DNA of 64,000 nt from Eledone cirrhosa (lineage: Eukaryota): contig OZ024750.1 of assembly GCA_964016885.1 (NCBI GenBank), positions 3,038,001 through 3,102,000 of the forward strand, read 5' to 3'. The notes beneath the pieces are model-generated. The model saw nothing but the letters and a program-made list of their open reading frames with translations. It was not told where the DNA came from and ran no database searches. The translations under genes and the position numbers were made by a program. This document shows, one piece after another, positions 7,960 through 56,457 of the stretch (positions are counted from its first letter, which is position 1; every line of letters starts with the position of its first letter).

Positions 7960-8392
7960 CATCATCATCATCATCATCACCACTATTTAACCTCCATTTT
8001 TCCACACTAGCATGGGTTAGACAAGTTGTCCTGTTGTGAAACAAGTCAGATTAAATGACCATGTCTTGCTTATACAGAACTATTTCTGGCTTAGTTTCTA
8101 TAGCTGGATACCCTTCCTAACACTAACCACATTTATAGTGTGGACTAGGTGCTTTTTATTGTGGCACCAACACAACTACTTTACAGGGTGGACTGGGTGC
8201 TTATTGTCATGTCACCAACACAACTACTTTACAGGGTGGACTGGGTGCTTATTGTCATGTCACCAACACAACTACTTTACAGGGTGAACTGGGTGCTTAT
8301 TGTCATGTCACCAACACAACCACTTTACAGGGTGGACTGGGTGCTTTTTTATTGTGGAACCAACACGACCTCTTTACAGAGTGGACTGGGTG
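7960..8392 (-). mobile_element. RTE-tail non-autonomous element with a derived 48-bp minisatellite
   Basis: (CAT)n followed by ...TTCCACACTAGCATGGGTTAGAC...TTTCTATAGCTGGATACCCTTCCTAAC, then about 5 tandem 48-bp units. Confidence 0.8.
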
Positions 8393-8626
8393 TTTATATA
8401 TATAATCATATTAAAAATGAAATTATTTCAAGATCTATAACAGGTTCATTTACATACATTGGCATAAATAACTGTATTCTGAGTCAAAAGAAAAGATAAA
8501 CAAGGAAAGAATATTTGGAAGACTCGACTAGCCACAGTAATGGCAGCCATTTCCAACAAGTTTTGTAAAAATGAACATTTAGAAATTATGTAACATGCAC
8601 CAACATGTAACACAACACTGACCATT

Positions 8627-10839: not shown

Positions 10840-11210
10840 TTAGATGCCCTCCCTAATGAATCTCTTTACAGAGTGTACAGGGTGCATTTTATTGTGGCAC
10901 AAGCACAATCACTTTACAGAGTGTACTGGGTGAATTTTATTGGGGCACCGTCATAACCCCTTTACAGAGTATACTGGATACATTTTATCATGGTACCAGC
11001 ACTGTCACTTAATGAGTGCATTTTATCATGGCACCAGCACTACCATTTACAGAGTGTACTGGATGCATTTTATTGTGGCACCAGCACATCCACTTTACAG
11101 CGTGTACTGGGTGCATTTTATTGCAGCACCAGCACTATCACTTTACAGAATGTACTGGGTGAATTTTTACATGACGTCAGCACTACTACTTACTTTACAG
11201 AGTGTACTGA
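10840..11210. repeat. ~45-48-bp minisatellite derived from the RTE-tail element
   Basis: About 8 diverged units of TTTACAGAGTGTACTGGGTGCATTTTATTGTGGCACCAGCAC. Confidence 0.85.
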
Positions 11211-13012: not shown

Positions 13013-14297
13013 ATATCATCATCATCATCATCATCATCAACGTTTAACGTCCGTGTTCCACGCTTGCATGGGTTTGGACGGGGGTTTTCCCACTTGAGGC
13101 AAGAGTGATTGTCTTGCTCGCATAGGACTGTCTGGCAGGTTTTCTACAGTTGGATGCCCTTCCTAACACCAACCACATTTACAGTGTGGGTCTGGGAGGT
13201 TTTTACCGTGTTGCCTAACTGGTCACATTACAGTGTGGACTGTGTGTTTTTTTGTCGTGACACCTACACGATCTCATTTGTTTCGGCCTGGATGGTGTGG
13301 CACCAACATAACTTTACATAGAAGGGGGCGGTGTGGATGTGGTGGGGATGGTGGGACGGGGGTGTATTTTGTTAGAGATGCTTACTGACTGTAGTAGGTT
13401 TTACTTTGTATTTAGGTAAGGCGGGTCTTCTCTATTACTGAGTACCGCCAAAGGTCTCGGTCCAGTGACATTGTCTTGGTGAGGTGTAAGTGTGTGAGGT
13501 CGGAGTTTATCAGCTCGTCCCAGATTTTTCTGGGTCTGCCTATTCCGTGGCTACCGTCTATCTTTATTGCCCTGCACTTTGTTATACAGCTATCGTCCTT
13601 CATGCGCATCACGTGACCATACCAACATAGCCTTCTCTCGAGTAAACAACATCTGATCCCTCTTATTTCTAATTTTTTCCTTAGTTCGTTTATGCTTTGT
13701 CGTTCACGTATATTACTATTACACATCCAGCGGAGCATGCAAGCTTCATTTCTCTCTAGTCTGCGTATATTCTCTGCACACAATGCCCAGGTCTCACTGC
13801 CATGCAACATTGCTGTTCGTATGCAGGCATCGTACAACCTGCCTTTCATTTTTAGGGAGAACCCTTTAGTGGCTAATAGTGGTATAAGCTCTCTGAACTT
13901 TTTCCACCCAGTTCTGACTCTAGCTACTGTACTTTCAGAGCACCCTCCCCCACTGCTGATTTTGTCACCCAGATAACGGAAGCTGTCCACTATTTCTATA
14001 GAACCCTCTGCGCAGTTGAAAGAGCTAGTATTTTGTGGGCACTTGCTGCTACTTATTGCCCCAGAACACTGGCCACATGTAAAATCTATGTTCTTAGTTA
14101 GCTTACCTGTGATCCCACTACATCTTTTATGCACCCAAACTTTGCATTTGGGACACAAAATGGAATTTCTACCTACGCCTTTCCTACACTCTGCGCATGG
14201 CCACTTCCCGGAGGGGACCACCGCCTTATTTTCTTTCTTACAAACTAGAATTTTAGTCTTAGCCAGGTTAATTTTAAGGCTTTTTGATTCTAGGCCG
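13013..14297 (-). mobile_element. 5'-truncated RTE-clade LINE with intact 3' ORF, 3' UTR and (GAT)n tail
   Basis: Uninterrupted ORF with LINE RT C-terminal motifs; 3' UTR ends CATGCAAGCGTGGAACACGGACGTTAAACG(TTG)(ATG)n. Confidence 0.92.
13412..14296 (-). CDS. RTE reverse transcriptase C-terminal fragment with an embedded PHD-like finger (TE-encoded, truncated)
   Basis: LKINLAKTK, FRYLG, AMLHGSETW, RLCWYGHVMRM and GRPRKIW motifs, plus a C4HC3 cluster; the first ~10 aa of the listed ORF come from flanking DNA. Confidence 0.85.
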   Translation of the reverse strand, partial: GLESKSLKINLAKTKILVCKKENKAVVPSGKWPCAECRKGVGRNSILCPKCKVWVHKRCSGITGKLTKNIDFTCGQCSGAISSSKCPQNTSSFNCAEGSIEIVDSFRYLGDKISSGGGCSESTVARVRTGWKKFRELIPLLATKGFSLKMKGRLYDACIRTAMLHGSETWALCAENIRRLERNEACMLRWMCNSNIRERQSINELRKKLEIRGIRCCLLERRLCWYGHVMRMKDDSCITKCRAIKIDGSHGIGRPRKIWDELINSDLTHLHLTKTMSLDRDLWRYSVIEKTRLT

Positions 14298-14326
14298 TAT
14301 ATATATCTCAAGGCCAATGCCACCAT

Positions 14327-14872
14327 ATCATCATCACATCATCATCACCGTTTTACGTCTGTTCTTCCACGCTAGCATGGGTTAGACGGGTTGTCCTGTT
14401 GTGTGCAGTGTCTGGTCGGCTGACCATGCCTTGCTCATACAGGAACTGATTTGGCTTGGTTTCTACAGCTGGATGCCCTGCCTAACACCAACCTCATTTA
14501 CAGTGTGGGCTGGGTGCTTTTTTTCCGTGGCACCTCCACGACCACCTTGCAGTGGGGGGGGGGGCATATTGTTTATATGCTTCAGCTTGTACCCATGGGA
14601 GGTCGGGTACTCTGTATTACTGCGTGACGCCAGAAGTCACGGTCGTGTGTCATTGTCTTTGAGAGGTGTAATTGGGTAAGGTCGGCTTTTATCACCTCAT
14701 CCCAGGTCATCTTGGGTCTCCCCACTCCGCGGTTTCCATCAACTTCTAGTGCTCTGCACCTTTTTATGCAGCTATCATCCTTCATACGCATCACATGTCC
14801 ATACCAGCGCAACCGCCTCTCCTGCACACAGCATTTGATTCCTCTTATGCTCAGTCTCTCTCTCAATTCATT
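14327..14872 (-). mobile_element. Second 5'-truncated RTE copy
   Basis: INELRERLSIRGIKCCVQERRLRWYGHVMRMKDD...GRPKMTWDEVIKADL, followed by 3' UTR and (GAT)n. Confidence 0.9.
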
Positions 14873-14974
14873 TATATATATATGTATGTAAAAGGTAAAC
14901 AGAAATAACAACACAATCAGTACAGTATATGGAAGGGATATATTAGGTTAACACTTGATATAGCAGGAAGAGGG

Positions 14975-25834: not shown

Positions 25835-26133
25835 TGTCCAGTCTACCTTGTAAAGTGGTTGTGTTGGTGTGTCATGACAAAAAGCACCCAGTCCACCCTG
25901 TGAAGTAGATCATTTTGATGCCAAGACAAAAAGCACAGTCCACACTGTAAATGTGGTTGGCATTAGGAAGGGCATCCAGCTGTAGAAACCAACCAGAAAC
26001 AGTTCGGTATGAGCAAGACATGGTCATCTGATCTGATTTGTCTCGCAATGGGACAATCCATCTAACCCATCATAACGTGGAAAAATGGAAGTTAAATGGT
26101 GGTGATGATGATGATGATAATGATGATGATGAT
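25835..26133 (+). mobile_element. RTE-tail non-autonomous element
   Basis: GGTTGGCATTAGGAAGGGCATCCAGCTGTAGAAACC...AACCCATC...GTGGAAAAATGGAAGTTAAA(TGA)n, preceded by two diverged ~48-bp units. Confidence 0.8.
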
Positions 26134-26874
26134 TTGTGATATGAAAATATAATTTTCCAAGTAATAGTCATCACCAAAAGGTAACTAAAGTTAATTCCAT
26201 ATCAGTCTTAACAATATAAATATGCTGAATAGATAGATATGAAAGTATATGAAAATGATGTTTAGCTGAGCTGAAAAACTACTAGAGATGCTGCAGTAAT
26301 TAATGAAGCTCTTAATATAACCTGTTAAATATCTCCAAGAAATGTAAAATATAGGCTATGAGAATCTCGTGAAATCACAAGTTTTTCTAAGTGGGCAGCA
26401 AATAAAAGAACTGTATGCATTGCAAAGACGTAATCTTCAGCTATAAAAATAATTCAATACTTTCCATTCTTTCATATCAGACAAACTAGGAGATAATTGA
26501 ATAACGATTTTCTTCTAAAAATTGATTGCAAGCAATGGTTATAGGAAAAACTGCTTGGAAAATAATGGTCCAAAAATATTGAATGCTCTATCAGTAGATT
26601 TCATAAAGTTTTGATCTACTTGAGACACCAACAACAAAAAATATCGTTTCGTTTCTCTTCAAGGATGTTATTTTCTTGAATCAAAAATAATTTGCTTTCT
26701 CCTTATGGAACTAAACCTCATTCTGGAACTACTAATTGGTTAAAATATAAGTCGTACACTGCAAATGTTTTTTCTTTAATGTCACAAATGAACATCAACC
26801 AAATAACTTAGACAAGTGTGGTGACTTTAGAAACTTTGTTACAGTTGAAACAACAAATTGTCTACACCACCTTT

Positions 26875-27120
26875 ACACTGTAAAGTTACGTTGGTTTCAC
26901 GATAAAAACCATCCAGCCCACACTGTAAAGTGGTTGTGTAGGTGTCACAACAAAAAGCACCCAGACCACACTGTAAAGTGGTCATGCAGGTGTCACAACA
27001 AAAAGCATCCAGTCCACACTGTAAAGTGGTCATGTAGGTGTCACAACAAAAAGCATCCAGTCCACACTGTAAAGTGGTCATGTAGGTGTCACAACAAAGA
27101 GCACCTAGACCACACTGTAA
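26875..27120. repeat. 48-bp minisatellite
   Basis: About 5 units of CACTGTAAAGTGGTCATGTAGGTGTCACAACAAAAAGCATCCAGTCCA. Confidence 0.9.
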
Positions 27121-27915
27121 GCCACACGGTAAATTTTAACTAGTTATCACATTTATAATATTTATGCCAAAGTTAGTCATGTTAAAATTACTAATCTTGC
27201 GTCAACCAAACACTTTAGTTTCTTTCTTTACATATATAAGGAGGTTGACTTACATTTGAGTATATACGGTAGTTCCTACAACAAATACCAATACTAACAA
27301 CAATAAAAATCATCTTAAGACCATTTTCTATAGCAGGGGCTATTTGTTTTGTGAACTACATGGCAGAGCTTGTTCATTTTTACCGGTTTGTTTGCATCTC
27401 CTTTCATTAACCCCCTGGCTTTCATTTAATCCTGCATCTTTTGCCATGACTTTCTTGGTCTTTCCCTTCTACTTCCTTTCCTTCCAATATTTATTTTTTC
27501 TCACCCCTCTCACCCATCTTCAACATACGACCCAACCAATTCTTTCCATTTCTTGTTGCCTCAAAAATTATTCCAACAAATATTAATATTGAAAATAATA
27601 AAAGAGGACTTGATGATAATTCAGAGAAAAATTGGAAAATGTTCTGGTCATCATTTTAGGAGTTTTATTCCCAAATATTTATATGATAAGGAGAATGGCC
27701 ACCAGTCTTTGAGGATGTAAACATTTTCAGAGAATCTGTCTTTGTAAAACTTGGCCAGTACTAGACCATCAAAAGATGCAGTTAAACTGTATTCCTGATC
27801 AAGTTGTAGAAGTGAGTCATATTTGTTTGACATTTCACAGTAGATAATAATATTAAAAAAATAAACCAAATTACTCTTCTATGATGTATACATACACATG
27901 CCTGTATACACACAT

Positions 27916-27950
<35 letters not shown>

Positions 27951-28117
27951 AAATAAGGGTTTAGATCAAAATCCAGTGATTCTGATCTTGTTTACAATTT
28001 GCTCAACAAATTCGTTTGGAACATATACAAAGGAGTAATTTTAATACATCCCAGCCAAAATCTATATATATATATATATAATATAAGATCAAAAGATGGT
28101 TAAAGGAGTTCCATATA

Positions 28118-28184
28118 TTTTATTATGCGCATTTCAAAAACAAACATCATCAAGCAATAATATTTGTGTTTTCATCAGATAAAA
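28118..28184 (-). ncRNA. Minimal type I hammerhead ribozyme motif (minus copy)
   Basis: Mirror of the plus copy, with one mismatch in stem II. Confidence 0.7.
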
Positions 28185-28245
28185 CAGGAGATTTAAAACT
28201 GAACTATCCACAAGTGTTTTTTAGCCTTCATATCATGTTCTCCTG

Positions 28246-28312
28246 TTTTATCTGATGAAAAGACAAATATTATTGCTTGATGATGTTTGTTTTTGAAATG
28301 CGCATAATAAAA
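28246..28312 (+). ncRNA. Minimal type I hammerhead ribozyme motif (Penelope/retrozyme type)
   Basis: TTTTAT-CTGATGA-[AAAGACAAATAT...ATGTTTGTTTTT stem II]-GAAA-TGCGCA-TA-ATAAAA: complete core, 6-bp stem I, palindromic stem III. Confidence 0.78.
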
Positions 28313-28434
28313 TATATGGAACTCCTTTAACCATCTTTTGATCTTATATTATGCATACTCCAGTCCCACAAACTGTAGAGTGCTTCTTATCCGATATCTG
28401 CATTGCTTTATTGTACTACAATAAAACTCACCTC

Positions 28435-28467
<33 letters not shown>

Positions 28468-30131
28468 ATATAGAAAAGGATTCTACAGGACTAGAACTAT
28501 TTCATTCGGGAGAAATCACCAGGAAGCCGACTGTCCAAGTAATATGGTGGTAGGAGAGGGTGTGGATTGGGATGGGGGGAGGTCATTGGTTGATGGGTTT
28601 AAAGAAAAGGGAATTCTTTAAAAGCTATATTTAGAGTAACAAAGGCAGAAAGAATTCTTAGAGTTTGATTGACAAGATCCCAGGCTTTATTTGCCAAATC
28701 AGAACAAGCAAATAACGTTTCCATTGGTCTTTCCATTGCTGATATTATTTGCCACAGTCGCAAGTCCTGAATAAAATATGGCAGCTGCATATATGTTTAG
28801 CTTTGCTGGCTCAGTCACAGTTTTATATGAGAAAATGTTTTAATAACTATCTAACATTACTCCACATATGTTAGATGGGCTTACATAGTTTCTGTTTATC
28901 ATGTTAGAAGACACTTGCTTAAGAAGCTGAATAGTGGGATTGAACCTAAAAACACACATTTGTACCACACAGCCAACAACAATTCATTTTGGTCATTTGT
29001 AAAGAATCTAATATTGCCAAAAGATATGTTGATACATTTTTTTTTCTTTTCTCAAATCAAATTTCTAAAACTATTTCTAAATTATCCAAAACAGAAATTT
29101 GCCTGGAGATCAATTTTCAAATTCATGCAATTATGGGTTCAGCTAAAGTAAAAACAAATAAAATAAATTAAACCCCACTATAAAAAAATATATATATATA
29201 GAAAATATTGTATTTTGAAATCTCTAAGTTGAACATTTCCTTAAAATTTTGTTTTGGTAAGTACTGGTAAAAATTTAACAAAATAAGACTGTCCTATTAT
29301 ATTGTCTGTATTTTGAACTTTTCATAAATATTTCCAATATAAGCAGTGTATATTAAAGAAAAAAAATAACAGATAGGAGATTGTTTAATCCTGATGAAAT
29401 CTATATTTTTACTTGAAATTAATAAAAATTGATTCACAGTATGTATGTCCGATTATATTCTATGTCTTTTGAAGAGTAAAGAGCTATTATAAGCAGAAAA
29501 TGCCATTCCTTTGCTAAAATAAAATCTCATATGGGGGGTTTTTTTTTGGTGTGCATAAATGTGTCAGATTATTAAAGTCTACAATAAGCCAAAATTGTTG
29601 ATAGAAAACATGAATAAGTAATGATTTTAAGAACAATGTTTCCTGAGGGACATAACAGAATTTCTATAACTGTCATTCCTAAGTTGCTAATTTTGTTTTC
29701 TATTAATAGCTTTTACATACAATATGAATCGATTTTATTAATTTTAAGTAAAAATATAGATTTCATTGGAGCTAAACCTTTTAGCATCTCTTATTTTTTC
29801 CTTTAAATATAAATTGCTTATATTTGAAATCATCACAGTCATCATCATCACAGTTTAATGTCCATTTTCCTTGCTAGCATGGGTTAGACAAGTCAGATCA
29901 GATGACAGTCCATTGCTCACACAGAACCGTTTCCGGCTTGGTTTCTACAGTTGGATGCCCCTCCTAACACCAACCATATTTACAGTGTGGACTGGGAACC
30001 TTTTGAAATATTTATGAAAAAGTAAGGTTTTAGATCAGAAAAATGGGAAATTGTTGAGTAAGGTAGAAAATTATTTTAATGGAGCAGAAACTTTGCAGGA
30101 CACCAACAGGTAGAACAATGCTACTAAGGAA

Positions 30132-30315
30132 TGGATTGGTAGTATCGGTAGAGGGTTGGACGCCATCCTTTGATGCATAGAGTTACGGCCCTTGCCATTC
30201 TGAGTTCAAATCCCGCCGAGGTTAACTCCTTTCATCCTTATGGGGGTCGATAAAATAAAGTACCAGTAATGCACTGGGTAATTGCTGGCCTTGTGCCAAA
30301 AGTAGAAACAATTAT
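30132..30315 (+). mobile_element. tRNA-derived SINE
   Basis: Matches the 15445 copy; further copies at about 12451, 33692, 35028(-), 39164, 54119, 58515(-), 59220(-), 60382 and 62690(-). Confidence 0.88.
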
Positions 30316-30459
30316 TAATTCCATTGGCAGAATTGGTAGAGTATAGGATTTCCATACCATTTCTTCCTAACATGTTTCTCATATTATTTACTTAATTGTT
30401 TCTTCTGAAATCAAAGGTTTTCAATGTTTGGTTTTGATCTTCACATGTTTAACACACAT

Positions 30460-30520
<61 letters not shown>

Positions 30521-30619
30521 GCTTGTAATGAAAAAAAGATAAAGTCCTCAGTACATAGTTTACATCCTTATAGTACATCAAACAACTATCTGAATGAGCA
30601 GGTCATCTCTCTCTCTTCT

Positions 30620-30880
30620 TTTTCTCACTTATTCCTGGGAGGGTGATGGAAGCCCTCAGCCATGCCTTCCAGGGGTTCCTATGAGAAGTGACACCAACAG
30701 ACCTCATGAAATATACCCAAACATCGTGATCTACTTCTAAGTCTCTTGCCAGTAAAATCTGTCCACATGTCTGTAACACTGGAACTGTGATCTCTTTATT
30801 TGGAGAAGTAGCTCTGATCTCCGAGCTATACACTCTACCGAGTAATGTTACTCCAAAGATCCTTCTCATTCTTTCAATCA
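30620..30880 (-). mobile_element. Decayed RTE-clade (Rex3/Expander-like) LINE 3' fragment
   Basis: RRIFGVTLLGRVYSSEIR motif; 3' part homologous to 47710-47950. Confidence 0.6.
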
Positions 30881-31181
30881 TTACCTATAGGTAAAGGTAG
30901 GCAGGAAGACTGGTTTGAAGATAGCAAGTTTGGCCTTTACACCTCCCTCCCTTCTTCTGGTGACTGAGTGCTGAAGCTCTCTGCTAAGGTTAAATGATTA
31001 ATATCAAATTTGAACCTCAGAATGTTTTCTCAACAAAATATAGACAAGTAGTTTCAGAAGAAAGAACGATATGCCAAGCACTTAGCATCGTGTTTATATA
31101 TAGTTATAGATACAATTTAAAACACTGCAGTGAATGAAACTGGCTTCTTTCAAGGATACATGTCTATAATGTGTTGTAGGT

Positions 31182-49186: not shown

Positions 49187-49790
49187 GCAGTACAACTCTT
49201 GTGAAGATGATTTCAAGGTAAATTATACTTTACGAGATGTTGCTATAGTAAATGATTAAATTTTCAACACATTCAATTTTAAATAGAAGGAAATTACAAC
49301 CAAGTGAGATGGCATGACTGTCAAAATAGAGATAGAGGTTGAAACGTTTCCATCATCAAACAACACAAAACTGAACGCTTCATGTCAACAAAGTGTATCC
49401 GAGATAAAAGAGATTTGATCATACGATGCCCTTTCTTTACAGACTAAAATTATGCACTTTCTAACATATATTTTCAGTATCAAAAAATATTCTAACTATC
49501 AGAAAATGTTTAAATTTGATTAACAATGAGAAAAATAAAATCTCAAACCATTCATAAGTCATTCAACAGCTACATACTTGTGTACAAAATATTTCAAGAT
49601 ACGAAAAACCACTTTACAAGATACAAAAAAAAAATAAAGGTATTGATATTTTTTTTAAATTCTAAATTTCATTAGTAAAGAAATAAACACGCACAAAAAA
49701 AGACAAAAAACTACAGATATTCTAGAAAAATATTGTCTGTTATCTTATAAGGATTAAACATCTAAAACATGCTGCATTATAAATACTTAC

Positions 49791-49946
49791 ATCTCTTTGG
49801 CTAGTTTCTTTCAAAACAAGTTCTAATCCATCTAGAGCAATGTGAAATTCTTCAACTCGACGTCGAAACTGGAACCATAGGGGGACAGTCATGGATAAAT
49901 TTGCTTTCCTTGTCTCTGCATTAGCTTTGATGTTATCCAACTGGAG
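49791..49946 (-). CDS. Internal coding exon of a spectrin-repeat protein (dystrophin/utrophin/nesprin-like)
   Basis: Strong acceptor TTTTACTTTTTCAG and donor GAT|GTAAGT; 156 nt, phase 0-0; LQLDNIKANAETRKANLSMTVPLWFQFRRRVEEFHIALDGLELVLKETSQRD shows the helical R...L....W.QF spectrin-repeat junction pattern. Confidence 0.75.
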
Positions 49947-55552: not shown

Positions 55553-56457
55553 TTAGTCTTAGGACATATATCAGTCATAAGGCATAGATCAATCTTAGCA
55601 CATATATTAGTCATAGCGCATATATTAGTCAGAGGACATATATTAGTCATAGCGCATATATTAGTCATAGCGCATATATTAGTCAGAGGACATATATTGG
55701 TCTTAGGGCATAGATTGGTCTTAGGGCACAGATTGGTCTTAGGGCACAGATTGGTCTTAGGGCACAGATTGGTCTTAGGGCACAGATTGGTCTTAGGGCA
55801 CAGATTGGTCTTAGGGCACAGATTGGTCTTAGGGCACAGATTGGTCTTAGGGCACAGATTGGTCTTAGGGCACAGATTGGTCTTAGGGCACAGATTGGTC
55901 TTAGGGCACAGATTGGTCTTAGGGCACAGATTGGTCTTAGGGCACAGATTGGTCTTAGGGCACAGATTGGTCTTAGGGCACAGATTGGTCTTAGGGCACA
56001 GATTGGTCTTAGGGCACAGATTGGTCTTAGGGCACAGATTGGTCTTAGGGCACAGATTGGTCTTAGGGCACAGATTGGTCTTAGGGCACAGATTGGTCTT
56101 AGGGCACAGATTGGTCTTAGGGCACAGATTGGTCTTAGGGCACAGATTGGTCTTAGGGCACAGATTGGTCTTAGGGCACAGATTGGTCTTAGGGCACAGA
56201 TTGGTCTTAGGGCACAGATTGGTCTTAGGGCACAGATTGGTCTTAGGGCACAGATTGGTCTTAGGGCATAGATTGGTCTTAGGGCATAGATTGGTCTTAG
56301 GGCATAGATTGGTCTTAGGGCATAGATTGGTCTTAGGGCATAGATTGGTCTTAGGGCACAGATTGGTCTTAGGGCATAGATTGGTCTTAGGGCATAGATT
56401 GGTCTTAGGGCATAGATTGGTCTTAGGACATAGATTAGTCATAGGACATAGATTAAT
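55553..56457. repeat. 18-bp minisatellite, about 50 copies
   Basis: Unit TTGGTCTTAGGGCACAGA; homogeneous centre and diverged edges. Confidence 0.97.

Follow-up and report, generated by a model that had tools for sequence, protein, structure and literature searches.

How does a short stretch of the Eledone cirrhosa genome come to carry a complete hammerhead ribozyme motif on each strand, packed into a long inverted repeat between TA microsatellites? We addressed this question in a window of 64,000 nucleotides (assembly GCA_964016885.1, contig OZ024750.1, positions 3,038,001 to 3,102,000 of the forward strand), in which the module occupies positions 28063-28464 (Table 1). An initial annotation based on the letters alone had proposed arms of 114 bp with one mismatch, a 47-nt spacer and flanking (TA)n, and this anatomy was recovered in full, with the arms at 28078-28191 and 28239-28352. 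The sole mismatch is C at 28168 versus G at 28262; the G is a variant of the right arm, and C was present at this site in all 104 sampled family arms under a sampling pattern that allowed C or G. The locus is very probably a short, ORF-less head-to-head insertion of a hammerhead-bearing pseudo-LTR (pLTR) from an autonomous Penelope-like family with Hydra-clade motifs. Numbered along this pLTR (position 1 = 28189, position 252 = 28440), the spacer is ordinary pLTR sequence, which is unpaired only because the inverted arm ends at position 51, and a ribozyme motif is found on each strand because both arms cover positions 58-124.

Table 1. Features of the insertion in window coordinates, with pLTR positions in the remarks.
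Feature	Positions	Strand	Remark
(TA)9 microsatellite, left target	28063..28080	.	final bases overlap the end of the inverted arm
Inverted arm	28078..28191	-	pLTR 164 back to 51; started at the inner fixed start site, 5'-truncated at 51
Type I hammerhead motif, family-typical form with C-U mismatch in stem II	28118..28184	-	predicted cut after 28124
Head-to-head junction	28189..28191	.	microhomology of 2-3 nt; the fixed 5' stop of the family (position -5) lies 6-7 nt beyond
Direct arm	28190..28440	+	pLTR 2-252; started at the outer fixed start site
47-nt "spacer"	28192..28238	+	pLTR 4-50
Type I hammerhead motif	28246..28312	+	palindromic stem III 28298-28305, predicted cut after 28306
88-nt "tail"	28353..28440	+	bounded by the two fixed start sites; leads into 5' UTR and ORF in full-length copies
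(TA)12 microsatellite, right target	28440..28464	.	

The plus-strand motif consists of a stem I of six A-U pairs (28246-28251 with 28307-28312), the core segments CUGAUGA (28252-28258) and GAAA (28295-28298), a stem II of 16 pairs including G-U (28259-28294) and the stem III palindrome AUGCGCAU, which is the same on each strand. With CUGANGA, GAAA, NUH and three helices, all elements of a type I hammerhead are present, and the complete core and its predicted cleavage site are located as first described. The counterpart encoded by the left arm, which had also been postulated, carries its C-U mismatch at pair 4 of stem II. A motif pattern matched these two sites in the window versus none in 100 shuffles, and an Rfam scan of 26000-31000 returned no hammerhead family match. 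Another hammerhead-like match at 29391-29430 was discarded as weak, with a stem II of just two pairs. Conservation was followed in 87 distinct rows from 256 of 298 loci, which had been picked by ribozyme patterns. Recurrent changes in these rows preserve pairing at stem II pairs 1, 5, 10, 11, 13 and 16 and at stem I pair 7, and the commonest core change affects the free N7 position. All recurrent stem changes are one-sided transitions, which are easily tolerated by a purine-versus-U helix, and the preserved pairing is therefore modest evidence that the ribozyme is conserved across copies. A diverged subfamily (L102, L189, L191, L227, L235) has a stronger stem II, with C-G in place of two U-G pairs; its first stem II position is G.

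In folding predictions, the best fold is about 6 kcal/mol more stable than the active monomer fold, and an intermolecular stem III of 8 bp (-10.5 kcal/mol) is favoured on cofolding. In the parent element, the ribozyme would likely function as a dimer held together by the palindromic stem III. The window copy itself is most likely inert, as the window offers no second ribozyme on the same strand and the hairpin would bury the motif. In this respect the proposed masking by the antisense arm holds up as a prediction, since in read-through transcripts of either strand the core is predicted to be unpaired with a probability of at most 0.001.

A 28-nt ribozyme pattern gave 10,022 exact matches (5,033 + 4,989) in the 3.0-Gb genome and 0 for the reversed control, and a repeat unit of 3,692 nt (3.69 kb) was found by following copies upstream. 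Locus L051 comprises a partial upstream pLTR, the tail leading into a 5' UTR, an open frame of 821 codons and a 3' pLTR, so that an ORF of the Penelope RT/GIY-YIG type, for which the initial annotation had suggested a search, lies between two pLTRs. Its protein contains RWT (58), DKT (144), YRDD (378), CxCx5C (680), a GIY-YIG-like motif (699), CxxC (780) and CxH (808); there is no CCHH, and a single CxxC follows the GIY-YIG motif. Pfam gave nothing significant and no RT family match on the whole ORF, with GIY-YIG remaining below threshold (18.1 bits versus a cut-off of 22.6, E 0.0034). A PDB sequence search returned nothing under E 0.69 and no solved relative, and Atlas neighbours at 0.96-0.98 carry GIY-YIG and RVT_1 in a minority of their members. 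Pseudo-LTRs in partial tandem, inverted 5'-truncated copies and a one-ended tail all occur in the family, whose insertions sit in (TA)n, and 213 exact tail-to-5' UTR junctions genome-wide mark copies exceeding one unit. We therefore regard the family as a probable autonomous Penelope-like retrotransposon with Hydra-clade motifs, placed in this clade by motifs and not by a tree; it would add a new family to an established clade, with a layout that has been described before. A reading of the ORF as Neptune-like was considered and dropped, as the motifs fit Hydra.

In several side observations, the parent 3' UTR extends for about 0.95 kb ahead of the pLTR start (L051:7154-8107 and L020:1032-1462) and contains an internal duplication of about 220 bp (about 80% identity), stretches rich in C and, some 50 nt before the putative start, an AATAAA. 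The L051 frame (L051:4688-7150) has an Asn/Ser/Thr-rich stretch between RT and linker (about residues 590-680), which resembles the N-rich inserts described for rotifer Penelope elements in the accessible part of PMC3846280.

The family search bore out the assignment of a minimal type I hammerhead with palindromic stem III to a Penelope-like pLTR. The postulated inverted partial pLTR corresponds to the left arm (pLTR 164 to 51), insertion into (TA)n agrees with the suggested microsatellite targeting, and the element is indeed young, with 104 sampled family arms differing on average by 2% from the commonest letter. No support was obtained for a non-autonomous retroelement or retrozyme in its own right: long body-bearing copies contain this pLTR subfamily too, the family has an intact 821-codon ORF and thereby coding capacity, and a head-to-tail tandem of the short unit was not seen. 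In detail, both window arms carry the same subfamily letters at positions 89 and 127, and these letters recur in the long copies L094, L104, L106, L124 and L133. The direct arm is identical at 246-247 of 251 nt to the pLTRs of L124, which spans a full unit and has a longest frame of 639 codons. A separate subfamily with A at position 1 was considered for the window copy and dropped, because the left arm can supply that A. The joint of the window is also present at three loci on other contigs (L002, L005, L006), and at L003, L007, L008 and L011 the left arm stops as in the window with smaller trimming; all of these loci were chosen for their likeness to the window and give no estimate of frequency. 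The left flank (27952-28048) is a dispersed repeat in its own right, with other copies about 85-90% identical.

To what extent inversion is a general property of the family can be read from the first 100 of the 10,022 matches, which lie on contig C1 between 0.5 and 56.6 Mb and in which pairs were counted by hand. Sixty-eight of these matches form 34 divergent pairs up to about 5 kb apart, which argues that the hairpin is a by-product of integration and that inversion is the normal integration product of the family. Fifteen pairs are less than 300 bp apart, and projected onto all 10,022 matches the genome is estimated to hold about 1,500 short double-ribozyme hairpins. Arm lengths range from about 100 bp to more than 3 kb, the arms are not terminal and the junctions vary from copy to copy. 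A regional sample of 61 regions, covering all of the first 100 matches, contained 113 arms and 46 divergent pairs. Fifty-nine arms end near position 164 and 52 near 252, with only two elsewhere, and 40 of the 46 pairs combine one arm of each start site; of the six exceptions, at least three include a pLTR from a second pass. The two arms of a pair carry the same letter at 425 of 430 subfamily sites, whereas random arms disagree at 36%. We infer that a protein dimer copies a single RNA into both arms. At L142 and L017, separate family insertions were noticed 0.3-4 kb apart in (TA)n-rich ground.

The 5' ends of the arms are similarly restricted. The main start motif occurs in 12,419 arms genome-wide, of which only 5,314 continue with the element's own upstream letters, a count depressed by point variants, and 2,329 have G in place of the element's C. 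A small subfamily that was listed in full has 84 arms that continue, 28 with G, 21 with T, 3 with A and 21 with C followed by foreign upstream letters. The regional sample included 82 motif arms, 31 of which stop at position -5. Among non-C bases, 9 of 21 are G at the -5 stop; where arms are truncated elsewhere, the ratio is 5 of 46 (p = 0.007). Thirty G-starts were inspected by eye, including two pairs that share an insertion: in 15 the G is templated by neither the element nor the partner arm, six could come from a partner ending one base further, six from partner microhomology and three from a duplicated start. An untemplated 5' G marks a copied cap, as in LINE-1 and LTR elements, and thousands of arms stopping at one base, often with an extra G, are expected if a cap is copied. 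We therefore assume a capped RNA start at position -5, a site that presumably is Inr-like. The transcript of D. virilis Penelope begins in the upstream pLTR, and an internal promoter is present in the pLTR of that element (accessible part of PMC2377424). In a search of titles and abstracts, with open literature and supplements partly covered, no paper on a copied cap G or a strong-stop product in Penelope-like elements (PLEs) was found. At L162, L166, L167 and L131 the first 8-20 nt are re-copied in short tandem at the 5' stop, as if the RT had jumped back to the RNA start.

The ribozyme cut was also considered as a hot spot of insertion ends and rejected, because ends are rare there. Within the C-at-127 subfamilies that the patterns cover (81 of 104 sampled arms), only 40 arms carry C, G or T directly ahead of position 119, and about 12 of 30 inspected were point variants or a small deletion with an otherwise intact ribozyme; a further 56 arms differ at position 115. 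Only one of 90 second-pass arms ends at 119. The scarcity of such ends agrees with uncleaved RNA as the main substrate (PMC11167929, accessible sections).

Arms that stop at -5 and arms that pass it do not mix. Among pairs with both arms reaching -5 we counted 20 long/long, 11 stopped/stopped and 0/31 mixed (p ~1e-8), with L113, L115 and the first pair of L142 re-classed from the junction text due to aligner overshoot and 15 other pairs omitted in which at least one arm is cut short of -5. A second-pass sample covered 90 of the 213 tail-to-5' UTR junctions. Here the upstream pLTR passes -5 in 52 cases (up to -1115 in the 30 mapped fully) and stops at -5 in 0/52, for which the nominal p of 2e-11 is too strong, as some loci are two arms of one insertion or possible duplicates; the remaining 38 arms end scattered between positions 12 and 240. 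On a capped linear RNA, cDNA could extend beyond -5 only by jumping. Long arms therefore call for a circle, for a jump in which the RT passes efficiently from the cap onto the 3' pLTR, or for RNAs whose transcription started upstream of -5. Tandem dimers in the genome are improbable templates, because none of the first 100 listed junctions lie one unit apart on the same strand, although the assembly may collapse such dimers.

We consider it rather probable that two classes of RNA template exist. The stubs likely stem from capped linear RNA and the gene-bearing copies from a template without an end at -5, for example a ribozyme-made circle, as circular RNA templates have been proposed for PLEs (PMC4209133, accessible part). 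For a circle, the dimeric hammerheads of both pLTRs would excise a unit-length RNA that is then ligated; for a jump, the RT would always have to move from the cap to the 3' pLTR on terminally redundant RNA. That the endless template is specifically a circle appears possible but doubtful. As a joint reading we tentatively suggest, as something that may well prove right or wrong, that capped RNA starting at -5 and primed at 164 and 252 yields strong-stop-like stubs with a cap G, and that copies with an ORF derive from circular or redundant RNA.

Applied to the window, the protein of the element would likely have cut a (TA)n tract, and reverse transcription would likely have been primed twice on a single RNA. 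One cDNA would have started at pLTR 252 and the other at 164, leaving the 88-nt tail on one side only, and both would have been extended toward the RNA 5' end, the putative capped start at -5. After loss of 6-7 nt and about 55 nt of cDNA, respectively, the ends would have been joined head to head via 2-3 nt of microhomology. As neither window arm reaches -5, the template class of this copy is deduced from related junctions.

Several other explanations have to be weighed against this scenario. The hot spot at -5 might not be an RNA end at all if the CATATG palindrome at -6 to -1 anneals the growing cDNAs, in which case one kind of template would suffice. This is a real rival for part of the pattern: the joint is an overlapped palindrome in 10 of 31 stopped arms, and if the cDNAs anneal to each other, both the shared stopping of paired arms and the lack of stops on the second pass would be accounted for as well. 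However, arms stop at -5 despite a partner ending elsewhere (7 of 13 such pairs) or while abutting flanking DNA, and neither these pairs nor the untemplated G is explained, the latter being found also at joints with an extra base on both arms and enriched precisely at -5. We regard the palindrome as an improbable sole cause. A SINE-like offshoot, i.e., ORF-less loci whose transcripts begin at the pLTR start and serve in trans as templates of the family protein, is unlikely but a more serious contender for the short copies, and it would be compatible with twin priming as the source of the short RNA class. The finding that short and long arms never occur in one insertion is expected with RNAs having nothing upstream of -5, the internal promoter of the D. 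virilis Penelope pLTR (PMC2377424, accessible part) would permit such transcription, and one haplotype is found in four stopped arms (two insertions) and in no long arm. Common haplotypes, that of the window included, are nevertheless shared by both classes. The inferred start base is gone from the window copy, joints differ between copies, so that the inverted unit is rebuilt each time and not copied whole, and head-to-tail arrays of the short unit were not seen.

A long near-perfect inverted repeat beside TA is also what a MITE or a microRNA hairpin would look like, and the region matches Rfam MIR869; moreover, no short-read contig among the contigs of four runs spans the stretch, as might be the case for a misassembly. 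The probability of any of these is practically negligible. The non-terminal arms of non-uniform length are not those of a MITE, the MIR869 match (95.8 bits versus a cut-off of 330) reflects the hairpin just as the other Rfam matches do, the same joint recurs on other contigs, and copies are linked to an RT-endonuclease ORF. Slightly less remote, though still very improbable, is a host-adapted switch, with the ribozyme of a host pre-mRNA hidden by the antisense arm and its cleavage governed by ADAR or Dicer. Masking is predicted for both strands, but a number of hairpins as high as the estimated one is expected from integration alone, the active fold is disfavoured and a second same-strand copy is lacking in the window. 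No host gene was established over the site, and with inversion as the normal integration product the suggested protection of host pre-mRNA finds no footing. As for ADAR editing, a weak hint exists at the level of the family that says nothing about this locus. Contigs of X4, a run of unrecorded kind, show A>G or T>C at 28125, 28156, 28321 and 28328, all four element positions that depart in this way from X1, another run of the same organism, at 5-17% of depth versus 0-0.4% in X1; this signal from another sample is pooled over the whole family, cannot be placed at the locus and may be allelic. If X4 is RNA, the changes possibly represent A-to-I editing of family hairpins. Editing sufficient to open the 114-bp helix would likely also hit catalytic A residues.

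The remaining window offers some further context. A possible host exon at 49743-49940 (minus strand) has one relative of 121 aa with 67-72% identity and no gene model. LINE-like retrotransposon 3' fragments with a PHD-like finger (weak Pfam match), which we take to be RTE-type, lie at 13412-14338 and 14582-14947 (minus strand). An 18-bp minisatellite of about 50 copies (96%) occupies 55556-56454, and three arrays of a related 48-bp repeat are found at 8119-8397, 10859-11167 and 26875-27120.

In summary, the locus, probably a twin-primed stub, is an ordinary one. The family, however, is useful, as it is young and uniform and its roughly 10,000 arms make the integration mechanism legible from the genome. 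Stop and G, the pairing of arm classes and the second pass predict a capped start at one base and either a 3.7-kb circle or a cap-to-pLTR jump, and a capped stop together with a second, endless template renders the open question of Penelope replication testable. If it holds true, the circle or the jump would account for the regeneration of pseudo-LTRs in Penelope-like elements, and in the case of a circle the hammerhead, whose function in these elements is called unclear (PMC8557442, accessible text), would gain its job. In addition, a single family supplies this genome with about 1,500 short inverted repeats and several thousand long ones, a likely source of dsRNA for editing.

The family was compared with known systems as far as the accessible sections of the respective papers reach. 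Hydra-clade elements are marked by DKG changed to DKT, RWK, a CxCX5C linker, CxxC and CxH around conserved E and N, lack of CCHH and insertion into (TA)n (Craig et al., 2021; PMC8557442). The family shares the C-terminal GIY-YIG, DKT, CxCx5C, CxxC/CxH, the missing CCHH, the (TA)n target and a type I hammerhead with palindromic stem III near the 3' end. The layout has been published: the legend of Figure 2 in the same paper describes an inverted truncated copy and a one-sided tail, and its supplement lists for Penelope-13_HM of Hydra a 5'-truncated inverted copy with a hammerhead on each strand. In contrast to the clade, which generally, as a tendency, stays below 3 kb, the unit measures 3.69 kb with about 0.95 kb of 3' UTR ahead of the pLTR, RWT replaces RWK, stem II has 16 AU/GU-rich pairs instead of the 3-7 listed for Hydra families, and about 10,000 ribozyme copies are present. 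The ribozyme sequence also differs from the one listed for Hydra-1_Obim, the octopus family of this clade (PMC8557442).

Dual motifs on opposite strands, 100-700 bp apart, have been described for the minimal hammerheads of metazoan PLEs (Cervera and de la Pena, 2014; PMC4209133). Our family resembles these in the type I motif within pLTRs, the long helix II, the palindromic helix III and the dual arrangement, and shares the proposed dimeric cleavage and circular RNA templates. It deviates by the missing G10.1-C11.1 pair, which is A-U or, in the diverged subfamily, G-U, and by its uniformity, as the hammerheads of PMC4209133 are highly variable. Non-LTR retrozymes (PMC7229834; bioRxiv 10.64898/2026.07.22.740005) likewise have a short type I hammerhead unit related to PLE pLTRs, but they form head-to-tail tandems without an ORF, whereas the family forms head-to-head pairs with variable junctions and is tied to an ORF.

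For the mechanism, a comparison is offered by the Anolis Poseidon element PAc, for which, in vitro, two internal sites of RT initiation delimit the tail and both strands are extended (Frangieh et al., 2024; PMC11167929). Two start sites within the RNA that set the tail, extension of both target strands and an AT-rich target are common to both systems, and we also count uncleaved RNA as main substrate and a predicted protein dimer as shared. The sites of our family are 88 nt apart, upstream of the ORF and each at a TA-rich, target-like word, whereas PAc starts without homology, and the accessible text of PMC11167929 contains no report of a fixed 5' stop or an extra G as seen here. In PMC3846280, as far as its accessible part goes, head-to-head junctions are explained by self-priming on an antisense template; the one-of-each use of the start sites and the extra G suggest that twin priming on sense RNA fits better.
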